Under the pieces are notes generated by a model. The model was not told the origin of the DNA. It made no database searches and saw nothing but the letters and a program-made list of their open reading frames with translations. The position numbers were made by a program, and so were the translations under genes. DNA of 64,000 nt from Oscillospiraceae bacterium. Lineage in GTDB: Bacteria > Bacillota > Clostridia > Oscillospirales > Oscillospiraceae. This document shows positions 2,565-18,285 of this stretch, piece by piece (position 1 is the first letter of the stretch; the number at the start of each line of letters is the position of its first letter). Where the stretch lies: NCBI GenBank assembly GCA_017937195.1, contig JAGBEA010000048.1, forward strand, positions 16,188-80,187, written 5' to 3'.

Positions 2565-4388
2565 ATGGAACAGATTCTTACCCCCAAGATCGGCGCAGAG
2601 CAGGTGCGTCAGGCGGCGGAGATTTTGAAGAAGTACCGCCGCGGCAAGGCGCATCTGGAGCAGCGGCTCATCGACAACGAGCAGTTCTGGAAAATGCGCC
2701 ACTGGGAGCAGATGGACAAAAACGGCGAGGGCGGCAACGGCGCAGACCCCCGTCCCACCAGCGGCTGGCTGGTCAACTGCATCCTCTCCAAGCACGCCGA
2801 CGCTATGGACAGCTACCCCGAGCCCACCGTGCTGCCCCGCGAGCAGAGCGACACCGCCGAGGCGGAGAAGCTGAGCCGCATTTTGCCGGTGATCCTCAAG
2901 CGCTGCCGCTTCAAAAAGGTCTATGCCGACGGCTGGTGGCGCAAGCTGAAGTCCGGCTGTGCCGCCTACGGTGTGTTCTGGGACGGCAGCAAGCTGGGGG
3001 GCTTGGGCGACATCACCATACGCAGTATGGACATGCTCAACCTCTTCTGGGAGCCGGGTGTTACCGACATTCAGGACTCGCCCCACTTCTTCGCCACGGA
3101 GCTGGTAAGCAACGAGGAGCTGGTGCAGCACTACCCCCAGCTGGAGGGTAAGCTCCACGGCGGCAGCTTCTCCGTCAGCCGCTATCTCTACGACGATGCG
3201 GTGGACACGACCGACAAGTCGCTGGTGGTGGATTGGTATTACCACACCGAGGAAAAGGGCAGAAAAGTGCTGCAATACTGCAAATTCGTGGGGCAGACCG
3301 TACTTTATGCCACGGAAAACGATGTGGAAAGCGACATCGCCCAGCGCGGCTGGTACGACCACGGCAAGTATCCCTTCGTGTTCGACGTGCTGTTCCCCGA
3401 GGAGGGCACGCCCTGCGGCTACGGCTATGTGGATCTGTGCAAATCCCCCCAGAAGCAGATCGACCTGATGAATCAGGCGATTTTGAAAAACGCGCTGGCG
3501 GCGGCTACGCCCCGCTTCTTCATCCGCGCCGACGGCGCCGTGAACGAGGAGGAGTACGCCGATTGGACGCGCCCCTTCGTCCACACCAACGGAAATCTGG
3601 GCGCCGACTCCATCGCACCTATCCACACCGCAGGGCTGGACAGCGTGTATGTGGCGATTCTGCAGAGCAAGATCGCCGAGATGAAGGAGACGGCAGGCAA
3701 CCGCGATGTGGCAAACGGCGGCACCAGCGGCGGCGTGACGGCCGCCACCGCCATCGCGGCGCTGCAGGAGGCGGGCGGCAAGCTCAGCCGCAATATGATC
3801 GCCGACGGCTACGAGGCCTTCAGCGATGTGGTGACCCTCTGCATCGAGCTGATCCGCCAGTTTTATAGCCTCCCCCGCCAGTTCCGCCTGCTGGGCAAGA
3901 ACGGCGCGGAATTTGTCAGCTACGACAGCGCGGGGCTGCAGCTGCAGATCACCGATGACGGCTTTGGCGTGCAGTATCGCGTGCCCGAGTTCGATCTGGA
4001 GATCGCGGCGCAGAAGGAGAACCCTTACAAGACCATGGAGTACAATCAGCTGGCGCTGCAGCTGTTCCAGATGGGCTTTTTCCGCGAGGAATTGGCCGAT
4101 CAGGCGCTGCGCTGTCTGGAGCTGATGGAGTTTAAGAACAAAGAGCGCATTGCCGACTCCATCTCCCGCGCCCAGACGCAGGCGCAGGAGAACGAAATGC
4201 TGAAGGCGCAGCTGCAGGAGCTGGCAGCGGCGGTGGATGCCATAGGCGGCACGGCGCTGACCTCCGCGCTGCAGCAGGAGCTGGGCGGTGCGGGAACGGC
4301 GCAGCCCCACGGCGCCGCGCAGCAGGAGAAGCTGAGCGCGGTGGAGCAGATGCGCCTTGCCGCCCAGCAGGCGGTGCAGCCCCGATGA
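2565..4388 (+). CDS. Phage portal protein
   Basis: 607 aa, follows TerL, SD AAGGAGG. Helical composition with a Gln/Ala-rich C-terminal barrel-like tail, as in P22/N4-like portals. Confidence 0.8.
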   Translation: MEQILTPKIGAEQVRQAAEILKKYRRGKAHLEQRLIDNEQFWKMRHWEQMDKNGEGGNGADPRPTSGWLVNCILSKHADAMDSYPEPTVLPREQSDTAEAEKLSRILPVILKRCRFKKVYADGWWRKLKSGCAAYGVFWDGSKLGGLGDITIRSMDMLNLFWEPGVTDIQDSPHFFATELVSNEELVQHYPQLEGKLHGGSFSVSRYLYDDAVDTTDKSLVVDWYYHTEEKGRKVLQYCKFVGQTVLYATENDVESDIAQRGWYDHGKYPFVFDVLFPEEGTPCGYGYVDLCKSPQKQIDLMNQAILKNALAAATPRFFIRADGAVNEEEYADWTRPFVHTNGNLGADSIAPIHTAGLDSVYVAILQSKIAEMKETAGNRDVANGGTSGGVTAATAIAALQEAGGKLSRNMIADGYEAFSDVVTLCIELIRQFYSLPRQFRLLGKNGAEFVSYDSAGLQLQITDDGFGVQYRVPEFDLEIAAQKENPYKTMEYNQLALQLFQMGFFREELADQALRCLELMEFKNKERIADSISRAQTQAQENEMLKAQLQELAAAVDAIGGTALTSALQQELGGAGTAQPHGAAQQEKLSAVEQMRLAAQQAVQPR

Positions 4389-13091: not shown

Positions 13092-14114
13092 ATGGCAGGC
13101 TACTACGGCAAGACGCTGACGGGACGGCAGCGGGAGGTCTACGCGCTGCTGCAGCAGGGCTTTGACGCCCTCGCGCCCTCCATCCGCATCCCCAAGCTGG
13201 CGGCGGAGGAGCTGGCGGAGGTCTATTTGCGCCTGAAGCTGGATGAGCCGCTGCTGTTCTTCGTCATCGGCTACAGCTACCGCTACTATCAGGGGGCGGA
13301 GCACGTGGAGCTTTTGCCCGAATATCTCTTCGACAAGGCGAAGGTGAAGGAACACCGCCAAGCCGTCGCCGCCCGCATCCAGCGCTTGGCGCGGGGGATG
13401 GAGGGTCTCTCGCCGCTGGAGAAGGAGCAGGCCATTCACGACTTCATTTTGCACAATGTCCGCTATGACAAGCTGAAAAAGCCCTACTCCCACGAAATCA
13501 TCGGCCCGCTGACCCAAGGCGTGGGCGTGTGCGAGGGCATCGCCAAAACGGTGAAGGTGCTGTGCGACGCGGTGGGTCTGCCCTGCGTCATCGCCCTGAG
13601 CCACGCCAACCCCGATAAGGGCATCCGCTACCGCCACGCATGGAACGTCATCACGCTGAACGGCAGGCACTATCATCTCGACGCCACCTTCGATAACTCG
13701 CTGCAGCGTGGGTGTGAGCGGTACGACTACTTCAATCTGGATGATAAGCACATCTTCCGCGACCACGAGGCGCTGGTGCTGCCGCTGCCTGCCTGCACCG
13801 ACGGCGACGGATTTTTCTACCGCAGCATCTCACTGACCAAGCTGGAGCAGGTGGAAAGCCGCGTGAAGCAGGCGCTGCGGAAAAAACAGCCCCAGCTGGT
13901 GTTCCACTGGCGCGGCGGCGGACTCAACCGCGCCGTTTTGCAAAGCATCACCGACCTTGCAGGCGGTCTTGCCGCCCAAAAGGGGCTTGCGGTGTGCTGC
14001 GCCGTCAACGTGCCCCAAGCGGTGCTGCAGCTGGATTTTGCCGCGGAAACGGCGGCGGATGTGACCGTGCAGCAGCCCGATGAGGCGCAGGATAATGCGT
14101 CTTTCACAATTTAG
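13092..14114 (+). CDS. Transglutaminase-like (Cys-His-Asp) domain protein
   Basis: GVCEGIAK...HAWNV...YHLDATFD catalytic triad motifs. ATG 13092 follows GGAGG. Confidence 0.85.
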   Translation: MAGYYGKTLTGRQREVYALLQQGFDALAPSIRIPKLAAEELAEVYLRLKLDEPLLFFVIGYSYRYYQGAEHVELLPEYLFDKAKVKEHRQAVAARIQRLARGMEGLSPLEKEQAIHDFILHNVRYDKLKKPYSHEIIGPLTQGVGVCEGIAKTVKVLCDAVGLPCVIALSHANPDKGIRYRHAWNVITLNGRHYHLDATFDNSLQRGCERYDYFNLDDKHIFRDHEALVLPLPACTDGDGFFYRSISLTKLEQVESRVKQALRKKQPQLVFHWRGGGLNRAVLQSITDLAGGLAAQKGLAVCCAVNVPQAVLQLDFAAETAADVTVQQPDEAQDNASFTI

Positions 14115-14150
14115 CACGAAAAAGAACGGCTATTTTGTGCAAAATGACGG

Positions 14151-14179
14151 TTGACAGTGGATGGGTTGAATGTTACCAT
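14151..14179 (+). promoter_or_regulatory. SigmaA promoter of the met transporter operon
   Basis: TTGACA (14151-14156), 17 nt, TACCAT (14174-14179), with an extended -10 TG. Confidence 0.75.
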
Positions 14180-14227
14180 ACTCACAAGCACCGAGTAGGT
14201 CAATTTCTCAGGAAAGGAGAAAGCGAC

Positions 14228-14323
14228 ATGAAGAAGAGCGTTACCATGATGGCTATGGAGATGCGCATGTGCAGCATGTGCATGTTTCGTCACGCTCACT
14301 TCCAACAGCTTTCCAACACCTGA
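14228..14323 (+). CDS. Met-rich leader peptide MKKSVTMMAMEMRMCSMCMFRHAHFQQLSNT
   Basis: SD AAAGGAG. 8 Met of 31 codons, 7 of them in codons 7-19, plus 2 Cys. Lies upstream of a terminator and metQ. Confidence 0.8.
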   Translation: MKKSVTMMAMEMRMCSMCMFRHAHFQQLSNT

Positions 14324-14363
14324 TTCAAGACCTGAACCCATCGGGATATGAACGAGTGAATAG

Positions 14364-14403
14364 CAGCGGAAAGTCGTTGGACTTCCCGCTGTTTTTTGTT
14401 TTT
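14364..14403 (+). terminator. Attenuator terminator
   Basis: CAGCGGAAAGTC-gttg-GACTTCCCGCTG followed by TTTTTTGTTTTT. Confidence 0.85.
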
Positions 14404-14412
14404 CAGGAGGTA

Positions 14413-14475
14413 ATGATGATGCGAATCCGGCTTACCAAGCGAATGTGTCTGCGGACACAGTATAAGGAAGATTGA
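14413..14475 (+). CDS. Second short uORF MMMRIRLTKRMCLRTQYKED
   Basis: Perfect SD AGGAGG at 14405-14410, three tandem ATGs, 4 Met and 1 Cys in 20 codons. Confidence 0.45.
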   Translation: MMMRIRLTKRMCLRTQYKED

Positions 14476-14547
14476 ACCGGTATAACGGAGCGCCGGCATA
14501 CAGCTTCGTGAAAAACAAATCATTCAAAATTAAAGGAGATAAAGATT

Positions 14548-15393
14548 ATGAAGAAGATCATCGCTCTGGCACTGGCACTGGTGCTGACTCTGGCTCTGGC
14601 CGCCTGCGGCGCAAAGAAGGACACCATCCAGATCGCTGTCCCCAATGACGCCACCAACGAAGCCCGCGCACTGCTGCTGCTGGAAGCCAACGGCATCATC
14701 AAGCTGAAGGACGGCGCCGGCATCACCGCCACCAAGAACGACATCGCCGAGAATCCCTACAACGTGGAGATCGTGGAGGCTGAGGCTGCGCAGCTGCCCA
14801 ACCTGCTCAAGGACGTGGACTACGCTGTCATCAATACCAACTACGCCATCAACGCAGGTCTGAACCCCGTGAAGGACGCTTTCGTGATGGAAGGCTCCGC
14901 CTCCGAGTATGTCAACATTCTGGTGTGCAAGGAAGGCAATGAGAACACCGATAAGGTGAAGGCCGTTGTGGCCGCCCTGCTGAGCAAGGAAGTTGCCAAC
15001 TACATCACCAACACCTACAACGGCTCCGTGGTCAGCGTTGCTGAGAATCCCACCGACGGCTTTGACGCCACCGTCAACTACGATGCTCTGAAGGGCACCA
15101 CCATCTCTGTGGCCTGCTCCCCCAGCCCCCACGCCGAGATCCTGGACATCGTCAAGGGCACTCTGGATCAGAAGGGCATCACCCTGGATATCCAGATCTA
15201 CAATGACTATGTGGTTCCCAACAACGTGGTGGAGGACGGCACCGTTGATTTGAACTACTTCCAGCACGTTCCTTACCTGAATGACTTCAACGCCCAGAAC
15301 GGTACCCATCTGGTGTCCGTGGCCGGCGTGCACGTGGAGCCCATGGGTCTCTACGGCGGTCAGCAGACCTCTCTGGATGCGCTGAAGGGCTAA
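14548..15393 (+). CDS. metQ: Methionine ABC transporter substrate-binding lipoprotein (circularly permuted)
   Basis: Lipobox LAACG. NlpA/MetQ motifs IAVPNDATNEARAL and SPSPHAEIL/NYFQHVPYL, in swapped order. Confidence 0.9.
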   Translation: MKKIIALALALVLTLALAACGAKKDTIQIAVPNDATNEARALLLLEANGIIKLKDGAGITATKNDIAENPYNVEIVEAEAAQLPNLLKDVDYAVINTNYAINAGLNPVKDAFVMEGSASEYVNILVCKEGNENTDKVKAVVAALLSKEVANYITNTYNGSVVSVAENPTDGFDATVNYDALKGTTISVACSPSPHAEILDIVKGTLDQKGITLDIQIYNDYVVPNNVVEDGTVDLNYFQHVPYLNDFNAQNGTHLVSVAGVHVEPMGLYGGQQTSLDALKG

Positions 15394-17257: not shown

Positions 17258-17286
17258 TTGACAAGCGTCCCCAAAAGTGCTATATT
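17258..17286 (+). promoter_or_regulatory. Strong sigmaA promoter
   Basis: TTGACA-17 nt-TATATT with an extended -10 TG. Confidence 0.75.
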
Positions 17287-17317
17287 GCGGCTGAATACAG
17301 CTGAAAGGAGCAATAAT

Positions 17318-17509
17318 ATGGAAAAATTTGTCCCCTATGAGAAGCTCTCCAAGAAAAAGAAACGTGAGCTGGACGTTCGGCGCCGCGGCACGTGGTACGG
17401 CATCAACCCCGTCACCCGCAAGAGCGAGAATCCCAAGGCGTACAACAGAAGGAAGGCACAGAAGTGGAGCGATGACGCCCGCGACTGTGCCTTTTCTCTT
17501 TTTTCGTGA
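17318..17509 (+). CDS. Small basic protein, candidate alternative ribosome-rescue factor
   Basis: SD AAAGGAG, 63 aa, very Lys/Arg-rich, own promoter, terminator inside the CDS. Confidence 0.75.
   Translation: MEKFVPYEKLSKKKKRELDVRRRGTWYGINPVTRKSENPKAYNRRKAQKWSDDARDCAFSLFS
17453..17504 (+). terminator. Intragenic intrinsic terminator upstream of the ORF stop codon
   Basis: AAGGCACAG (17453-17461) pairs with CTGTGCCTT (17485-17493), with an inner stem 17464-17482. TTCTCTTTTTT follows and ends before TGA 17507-17509. Confidence 0.65.
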
Positions 17510-17565
17510 CATAGGCGGCAAATTTGTGGTATAATCGACACAGCTTTTAACGGAGGAATCCCCCT

Positions 17566-18285
17566 ATGGTAATGGTATTTGAAAAGGAATATGAGCTGCG
17601 CGGCTCGGATTTTGACTGCTGCGACCGTCTGCGCCCCGCCTCGGTGCTGGATCTGTTTCAGGACGTGGCAGGCATCCACGCCACCCGGCTGGGCGTAGGC
17701 TTTGACGATCTCATCGCCCGCGAGATGATCTGGGTGCTGACTAAGGTGAAGTACGAGGTGGTGGGTGCGGTACGCCGCTATGACCGTGTCCGCGTCCGCA
17801 CTTGGCCGCTGCCCCCCAGCCGCGTCAATTTCCGCCGCGAGTATTGTATCGAGGAATTGGACGGTACGCCGCTGGTGCACGGCACCTCCGAGTGGGTGGT
17901 GGTGCACAGCGAGAAGCGCCGCGTGCTGCCGGCAGGCAATGTGTATCCCGATGAGGAGTACTGCCTGCAGCAGCTGTTTGAGGGGCGTCTGCGGAAGATC
18001 CCCGCCGCGCCGGCGGAGGGGGCGGGCTACGGCGTGACCCCCACCTTCACCCATCTGGATATCAACGGCCATGTGAATAACACCAAGTACGCCGACTATG
18101 TGCTGGATGCGCTGCAGCTGCCGCAGGGCAAGGCGGTGCGCGCGTTCCAGATCGACTACCACCGCGAGCTGCTGCTGGGTACGCCGGTGCAGCTGCACTG
18201 GCAGTGGCAGGAGGATACGGCGCTGGTGTGCGGCAGAAACGCAGAAGGGGAGAATATGTTCTGCTGCAGCGTGGTGTGTGAATAG
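17566..18285 (+). CDS. Acyl-ACP thioesterase (FatA/FatB-like)
   Basis: Double hotdog fold, DINGHVNNTKYADY motif. Confidence 0.9.
   Translation: MVMVFEKEYELRGSDFDCCDRLRPASVLDLFQDVAGIHATRLGVGFDDLIAREMIWVLTKVKYEVVGAVRRYDRVRVRTWPLPPSRVNFRREYCIEELDGTPLVHGTSEWVVVHSEKRRVLPAGNVYPDEEYCLQQLFEGRLRKIPAAPAEGAGYGVTPTFTHLDINGHVNNTKYADYVLDALQLPQGKAVRAFQIDYHRELLLGTPVQLHWQWQEDTALVCGRNAEGENMFCCSVVCE

Follow-up and report, generated by a model that had tools for sequence, protein, structure and literature searches.

The stretch analysed here, a window of 64,000 nt (64 kb) from contig JAGBEA010000048.1 of an Oscillospiraceae bacterium, carries at 17258–17509 a small gene whose mRNA is predicted to end before the gene's own stop codon, a design known from back-up ribosome-rescue factors. 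Upstream of the gene lie metQ, metN and metI, which encode a methionine transporter, and downstream of it a gene for an acyl-ACP (acyl carrier protein) thioesterase.

A basic reading frame that runs into its own terminator

The unit opens with a sigma-A-type promoter at 17258–17286 of the forward strand, on which all of its parts lie; TTGACA (17258–17263) is separated by a 17-nt spacer from a TG-extended TATATT (17281–17286), giving 11 of 12 matches and a predicted transcription start at about 17293. A Shine–Dalgarno sequence, AAAGGAG (17304–17310), stands 7 nt upstream of the ATG (17318–17320) of a nominal open reading frame (ORF) of 63 sense codons plus stop (17318–17509, MEKFVPYEKLSKKKKRELDVRRRGTWYGINPVTRKSENPKAYNRRKAQKWSDDARDCAFSLFS). 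The strong sigma-A promoter, the Shine–Dalgarno sequence and the 63-residue basic ORF named by the original prediction, which was made from the letters alone, are thus all present; the promoter does lie at 17258, the start given for the feature, but this position belongs to the −35 box, and the start codon lies at 17318.

Codons 1–50 (17318–17467, MEKFVPYEKLSKKKKRELDVRRRGTWYGINPVTRKSENPKAYNRRKAQKW) make up the conserved coding core, which has an isoelectric point (pI) of 10.7 and contains 17 Lys and Arg among its 50 residues. The end of this core enters an intragenic hairpin with an outer stem at 17447–17499, in whose G+C core GGCACAG (17455–17461) pairs with CTGTGCC (17485–17491); a small inner helix is predicted as well. 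The hairpin has a folding energy of −30.9 kcal/mol (z = −4.5), and none of 200 shuffled sequences was as stable. It is followed by the T-tract of the intrinsic terminator (TTTTCTCTTTTTT, 17492–17504; 11 T in 13 bases), which places the predicted RNA 3′ end at about 17498–17503. Intrinsic terminators usually release the RNA 7–10 nt past the stem. Since the nominal TGA (17507–17509) occupies +16 to +18 from the stem core, it lies beyond the usual release point and is predicted to be missing from terminated transcripts. The claim that a hairpin and a U-rich tract ending at 17504 precede the stop codon therefore holds, as does the claim that the hydrophobic tail of the protein is the translated terminator: the 5′ arm codes for the conserved K-A-Q-K and the 3′ arm for the unconserved D-C-A-F, and the last eight residues, D-C-A-F-S-L-F-S, are the 3′ arm and the T-tract read as protein.

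Conserved terminators, drifting stop codons and transcript ends

The window protein has no match in Pfam at E values up to 10 and none in NCBIfam. Searches of a collection of 5.8 billion proteins returned more than 1,459 homologs, all of them unnamed or "hypothetical" and mostly from metagenome-assembled genomes (MAGs) of Oscillospiraceae, and an exhaustive profile search gave about 2,090 clusters at 50% identity. Clostridia of gut and rumen carry the gene in their thousands. The family occurs in at least 61 species-level genomes, assigned to Oscillospiraceae, Acutalibacteraceae, Ruminococcaceae, Faecousia, Sporobacter and one Christensenellaceae; among cultured bacteria it is known at least from Clostridiaceae bacterium NSJ-31 (protein P0294, locus L188, with a TAA at +14 from the stem). 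The plasmid collection yielded no homolog. Calling the gene clostridial, as was done at the outset, is thus correct at the level of the class but not of the genus Clostridium. Conservation in the alignment extends from residue 1 to about residue 53, with K9, R23, W26, P31, Y42 and R44 invariant, and beyond them divergence is complete. One MAG, Lapin-019__bin18, carries two paralogous copies on separate contigs (L002 and L034), the latter of which, like the homolog L010, sits after a gene for an XRE-type helix-turn-helix protein.

To follow the terminator through the family, each locus was folded separately in 60 species-level genomes, namely the window and 59 genome loci with a complete ORF. 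A hairpin is present in 58 of the 60, with a G+C core that starts at codons 44–48 and ends at codons 55–63 and a median z of −5.2 against dinucleotide shuffles, and in 55 of these 58 the stem is followed within 10 nt by five T or more. In 54 of the 58 the frame stays open for more than 10 nt past the stem core before a stop begins; in one locus the stop begins at +8 to +10 and in three within +7. Over all 58 loci its position drifts from +2 to +870, with a median of +34. Two divergent members lack the hairpin, and one of them, L051, ends by an ordinary stop after 55 residues, which is about the length predicted for the non-stop products. In a second sample of 77 metagenome loci, scored by a looser rule, the hairpin was found in all, and the stop lies beyond +10 in 65. 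Such recurrence of an in-frame terminator is far beyond chance.

The stems vary in sequence and stay complementary, as GGCACAG/CTGTGCC, AGCCTTGAAA/TTTCAAGGCT, CTCCGCAG/CTGCGGAG and GGATCCGCC/GGCGGATCC illustrate. When the 12-nt 5′ arms of 135 loci (83 distinct arms) were paired with their own downstream regions or with those of loci with different arms, 10.6 of 12 positions paired in the former case versus 8.9 of 12 in the latter, and a foreign region paired equally well in a median of 5% of comparisons. This test, together with the per-locus folding, replaced RNAalifold on a MAFFT alignment of the hairpin region, which recovered only 6 pairs because loop lengths differ among loci.

The codons on either side of the hairpin are under different selection. 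Over codons 2–43, identity at codon positions 1, 2 and 3 is 0.70, 0.75 and 0.43, and the ratio of nonsynonymous to synonymous changes (pN/pS) is 0.32; over codons 60–72, past the hairpin, the corresponding values are 0.30, 0.27 and 0.30, with a pN/pS of 0.96. Codons 2–43 are thus under purifying selection and the post-hairpin codons are not, and an apparent C-terminal S-V-P-F motif is a mere complement of the K-A-Q codons. The annotated lengths of family members, 59 to 127 residues or more, are probably artefacts of reading through the terminator, the functional product having about 55–62 residues, and the family thereby illustrates a problem of annotation. In L019 (3001–4041), which holds the maximum stop distance, the frame has no stop for 870 nt beyond the terminator and enters the next gene, and a gene caller would give a 346-residue fusion.

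Transcript ends were examined in four bovine-gut runs labelled metatranscriptomic, whose contigs were mapped at 96% identity or above on L008, a homolog with a protein 79% identical to the window product. In L008 the ORF occupies 3001–3213, the stem arms 3136–3141 and 3164–3169, a T7 tract 3170–3176 and the TAA stop 3211–3213, 35 nt beyond the T-tract. The maximum depth over the ORF is 243, 97, 58 and 170 in the four runs; it falls to 39, 22, 16 and 41 at 3152–3165, to 0, 0, 2 and 15 at 3166–3179, and to zero in all four runs at 3180–3207, just past the T-tract. At 3208–3221, which contains the stop codon, the depths are 0, 2.7, 0 and 3.6, and over the upstream flank 0–30. So peaked a profile indicates that the signal is RNA and not DNA. 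The L008 transcripts end in the 3′ arm or the T-tract, at least 30 nt short of the stop codon. Coverage of L004 gives the same picture, from contigs shared with L008 and hence not independent. In shallow rumen RNA runs a further homolog, L011, is transcribed, with no coverage of its flanks, and one RNA contig begins at its predicted transcription start (966). The runs that contain the window itself are low-depth gut metagenome contigs of unclear type, uninformative on transcript ends. At L008:2500–2800, just 5′ of the homolog unit, lies a very highly expressed stretch (depth 120–700 in the bovine metatranscriptomes).

The central claim of the original prediction, an mRNA built to end before its stop codon, is borne out by these data, since the terminator is conserved, the stop and the post-hairpin residues are not, and the coverage of L008 ends at the terminator; the check proposed with it, that homologs should keep the terminator while their C-termini diverge, has been run with that outcome. 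It is nevertheless conceivable that the gene encodes an ordinary small protein with a terminator that merely overlaps its 3′ end, the protein being made conventionally, with a variable tail, through read-through or through melting of the hairpin by ribosomes, and trans-translation playing no regulatory part. Members with ordinary stops at about 55–61 residues would suit this explanation, as would a low-depth contig that crosses a terminator. We consider it improbable, because a conventional gene needs a stop before the end of its transcript and 54 of 58 genomes have none there, because the stop drifts from +11 to +870 over codons without selection, and because the RNA coverage of a homolog falls to zero ahead of its stop. 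Phage copies, described below, which combine an ordinary stop with a weaker T-tract and an additional terminator, further imply that the stop-less and the ordinary-stop designs are alternatives.

The position of the unit in front of the thioesterase gene also raises the question of a leader peptide or attenuator controlling that gene, for the terminator and the thioesterase start codon are 57 nt apart, and in a close relative (P0033) a thioesterase gene likewise follows. This can be nearly excluded. A second strong promoter at 17506–17535 (GTGACA, an 18-nt spacer and a TG-extended TATAAT; 11 of 12) overlaps the nominal stop of the small ORF and serves the thioesterase gene (17566–18285), so that the terminator insulates the two units; no alternative, antiterminating fold was observed; and the 50-residue sequence is strongly conserved as protein. 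Nearly every genome, moreover, has a different downstream gene, often on the opposite strand, the thioesterase being common to close relatives only. Among the 60 species genomes a flanking gene family recurs in three loci at most, all of them close relatives. Most homologs have promoter-like sites 20–35 nt 5′ of the ATG (23 of 58 score at least 10 of 12), and nearly all have a Shine–Dalgarno sequence of the AAGGAG(G) type. The small ORF is an autonomous, free-standing one-gene unit and not a leader peptide.

Two further observations concern neighbouring sequence. In a single case (L045:1996–3190) the gene lies 7 nt 3′ of a gene for an RluA/RluD-type pseudouridine synthase on the same strand. 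In the window, no tRNA, tmRNA or Rfam family was found at threshold anywhere in the 64 kb, nor in the region 5′ of metQNI (about 14100–14550), a place where one might look for a riboswitch or T-box.

RtcB-linked and phage-borne members

A divergent branch of the family, of the "YEKMSKK" type, is encoded directly 3′ of the RNA ligase gene rtcB (L047:1771–3192, L051:1776–3168, L072:1264–2677, L151:407–1788, L135 and L136), with the two genes overlapping (ATGA in L151) or separated by 3–70 nt. The order is reversed in seven near-identical viral contigs (L180–L186; for example L181:1604–2858), where the stop codon of the small gene overlaps the rtcB start (ATGATTAA). In both orders the arrangement is one of translational coupling to rtcB, the sole neighbour common to these divergent loci. 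Several of the RtcB-linked members have an ordinary stop at 55–58 residues and no hairpin. The linkage recalls the rtcB2-prfH operon, a known rescue-then-repair pair (PMC12829566).

The RtcB-linked subclade carries the motif Y-S-R-K-Q-K-H, in which K-H is invariant in the alignment and whose spacing equals that of Y39-M-R-K-G-K-H45 in ArfA. A K-H pair is the one feature reported as common to ArfA and BrfA in the mRNA channel (PMC6881298). The same stretch led to a domain of unknown function, DUF7230 (PF23876), which the RtcB-linked, phage-borne subclade matches at 28.4 bits against a gathering threshold of 27 (E = 1.8e-6; 19 of 42 model positions), the match covering the 19 C-terminal residues (34–52) of the proteins of L180–L186 and P0267–P0271, with the motif K-K-Y-S-R-K-Q-K-H-K-G. 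Residues 29–51 of E. coli ArfA, its ribosome-binding tail, give a weak match in that stretch of the model (E = 0.11). DUF7230 may itself be a family with an ArfA-like tail. No match was found in the window protein or in ten other main-clade and divergent members tested; only the L180-type subclade passes the threshold. Two independent lines, the coupling to RtcB and the motif in common with ArfA, thus point to the decoding centre of ribosomes that are stalled or damaged.

Copies of the gene also lie within prophage or phage genomes, in 11 of 142 other loci and in 32 viral contigs of IMG/VR (L156–L187), and two "Bacteriophage sp." records contain homologs; the loci in prophage or phage genomes, apart from the viral contigs, are L099, L103–L105, L114, L120, L134, L138, L140 and L148, and L153–L155. 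The phage copies stand between an HNH endonuclease gene and phage replication or late genes (DUF1492, SNF2, D5-primase and PolA), as the sole gene on the opposite strand, in the manner of a moron. In L104 the hairpin is retained, the T-tract is cut to four T, the stem is followed at 9 nt by a TAG, and beyond this stop lies a second canonical terminator, from which we infer that this copy is conventionally expressed. Such carriage could be taken to mean that the gene is primarily a phage gene (a moron) serving in phage–host conflict, for example to sustain translation after defence nucleases have cut RNA, the chromosomal copies being domesticated or remnants. We give this only a slim chance, because most loci, the window included, show no phage genes; the idea also concerns origin more than mechanism and would be compatible with a rescue function.

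A candidate back-up rescue factor and its known counterparts

Ribosome rescue is essential, trans-translation is pursued as an antibiotic target, and back-up rescue systems decide whether the loss of transfer-messenger RNA (tmRNA) is lethal. Apart from a handful of Bacillus species, Firmicutes are generally taken to depend on tmRNA and RqcH. So far only arfA and brfA are documented to have the stop-less design. Their products are back-up rescue factors, and each stays scarce because tmRNA tags its non-stop form (PMC6881298; reviews). In brfA, which has 71 codons, an intragenic terminator truncates the mRNA, with a predicted non-stop product of about 62 residues (PMC6881298). A survey of more than 15,000 genomes found Firmicutes largely without ArfB, and ArfA or BrfA only in 10 species of the B. 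subtilis group (PMC11633108); according to this survey, the host group of our family has no known ArfA, BrfA or ArfB, which leaves the niche vacant.

We regard a non-stop, trans-translation-gated design of the family as highly probable. For the window gene, polymerase would start at about 17293 and terminate in the T-tract at about 17498–17503, yielding an mRNA of about 205–210 nt without a stop codon, as the sequence, the conservation in the family and the RNA coverage of one homolog suggest. By analogy with ArfA and BrfA, each translating ribosome would stall at the mRNA 3′ end, where tmRNA–SmpB would tag the product of about 60 residues for proteolysis, so that the protein would normally be scarce; once trans-translation is saturated or lost, untagged product would accumulate. 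Its basic C-terminal half (P-V-T-R...K-A-Y-N-R-R-K-A-Q-K-W) might then probe the empty mRNA channel of stalled ribosomes and, since the protein has no GGQ motif of its own, a class-I release factor would be recruited to hydrolyse the peptidyl-tRNA. The RtcB-coupled and prophage variants would fit such a role whenever RNA damage stalls ribosomes.

On this basis the best single explanation, towards which we lean somewhat, is that the gene encodes an independently evolved back-up rescue factor that would act by recruiting a release factor. The role is favoured because the design is known only from arfA and brfA, because the host group lacks ArfA, BrfA and ArfB, and because of the RtcB coupling and the ArfA-like motif. 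The broadest form of the proposal strikes us as evenly balanced: that this is an unrecognised, independent family of release-factor-dependent rescue factors, the first in Clostridia, self-regulated by an intragenic terminator, variants of which were recruited as RtcB partners and as constitutive prophage genes, so that rescue after RNA damage would be a module traded between bacteria and phages. A literature search returned no description of the family, of a clostridial factor of such a type or of DUF7230; systems of this kind are known, and what is new is the family of proteins, the taxa in which it occurs, and its versions coupled to RtcB or borne by phages.

The protein is small and basic, as the original prediction had it, and is mostly disordered and devoid of GGQ. 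AlphaFold2 predicts one confident helix at residues 12–22 and the rest at low confidence (mean predicted local distance difference test score, pLDDT, of 67), which would fit a peptide that folds only on its partner. As most of the predicted chain is of low confidence, a Foldseek search against the PDB (best E value 9) is meaningless. With the family profile, PDB chains were searched at E values up to 10 without a match to ArfA or BrfA, the presence of BrfA in that library, as in Pfam and NCBIfam, being unverified; the matches that did appear, to DnaJ and to a Toxoplasma protein, were rejected as chance. The weak sequence resemblance to ArfA and BrfA that the original prediction had suggested was not recovered, in the case of BrfA by indirect searches. 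E. coli ArfA, used as a control, scores 89.5 bits in a comparable Pfam scan (PF03889), in which the window protein has no match. Its tail, K-A-Y-N-R-R-K-A-Q-K-W, contains Y-x-R-[RK]-K without the K-H, and only the divergent subclade shares Y-x-R-K-x-K-H.

Several observations weigh against the rescue reading or narrow it. There is no significant likeness to ArfA in sequence or fold (hhalign of the family against ArfA gives a probability of 0.45%), and BrfA was compared indirectly only, through profiles, Pfam and NCBIfam. The ArfA-like motif is short and limited to one subclade, and the alignment of that subclade with ArfA, which places the motif on residues 35–50, is not significant (hhalign P = 0.029, probability 1.7%). 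The stop lies at or just past the stem in a minority of loci (L006, L040, L055 and L099/L104), and L051, L056, L072, L151 and L180–L186 have no hairpin, so that gating is not universal. The RNA data come from a single study and a single clade of homologs, as assembled unitigs whose ends are imprecise; one contig, with a depth of 7 where the ORF has about 98, crosses the terminator of a related strain, so that read-through or DNA carry-over may amount to as much as about 7%. Finally, prophage carriage and RtcB linkage would fit other RNA-related functions too.

This last point bears on the main alternative, in which the protein is gated by trans-translation and yet is no release-factor adaptor, acting instead elsewhere in the response to damage of RNA or the translation machinery, for example as an RtcB cofactor, an RNA chaperone, or a protector or silencer of ribosomes. 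The non-stop design tells when the protein accumulates and not how it acts, RtcB coupling would suit an accessory of RNA repair, and general RNA binding is plausible for a basic, disordered protein. We nevertheless judge this alternative unlikely, given that the only two gene families known with the design are rescue factors, that most family members do not lie beside rtcB, and that the subclade motif matches the ribosome-binding tail of ArfA.

Should the rescue reading be right, this would be the third unrelated family in which a stop-less mRNA serves as the sensor, making the circuit a recurrent evolutionary solution, and it would fill a gap for a dominant group of anaerobes in gut and rumen. 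New rescue factors could then also be sought by a rule based on sequence only, as conserved ORFs for small basic proteins in which an internal terminator is conserved and the stop drifts. Rescue factors would, as suggested by the coupling to RtcB and the copies in prophages, take part in responses to RNA-cleaving toxins and in phage defence.

Among known systems, PrfH/RtcB2 resembles the divergent family members in that a rescue function is encoded beside RtcB, in the rtcB2-prfH operon. PrfH, however, is a release-factor homolog with a catalytic domain, whereas the family protein has about 55 residues and no GGQ; RtcB linkage, moreover, is confined to a minority of the family, and the window gene is unlinked. 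ArfT of Francisella resembles the proposed factor in being a short, charged protein by which release factors are brought to stalled ribosomes; it is not known to be regulated through a non-stop mRNA. It belongs to the KGG-repeat family (PMC6514570), and differs in this from the window protein, which matches no Pfam family, KGG repeat included, at E values up to 10. ArfA, from E. coli and other beta- and gamma-proteobacteria, shares with the family its small size, its basic character and a stop-less, truncated mRNA with a hairpin in the ORF, and the encoded tail is hydrophobic, as in the window product, and dispensable in ArfA. The arfA mRNA is truncated mainly by RNase III, whereas the window unit has the T-tract of a canonical terminator; ArfA also differs in having no N-terminal helix and in the missing Pfam ArfA match of the window protein. 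Its Y-x-R-K-x-K-H (residues 39–45) recurs in one subclade at a similar distance from the mature C-terminus.

A further counterpart, BrfA (YqkK) of B. subtilis, is dependent on release factor 2. It differs from our family in that no sequence relationship was detected by the indirect searches, in its K-H motif, which the window protein lacks, and in its confinement to the B. subtilis group, whereas the family belongs to Oscillospiraceae, related Clostridia and their phages. Like the family, however, BrfA is encoded in a Firmicutes host by about 60–70 codons, and an intrinsic terminator within the ORF, a few codons before the stop, yields a non-stop mRNA; like the window protein, it is basic, has no GGQ and possesses an N-terminal helical element or elements.

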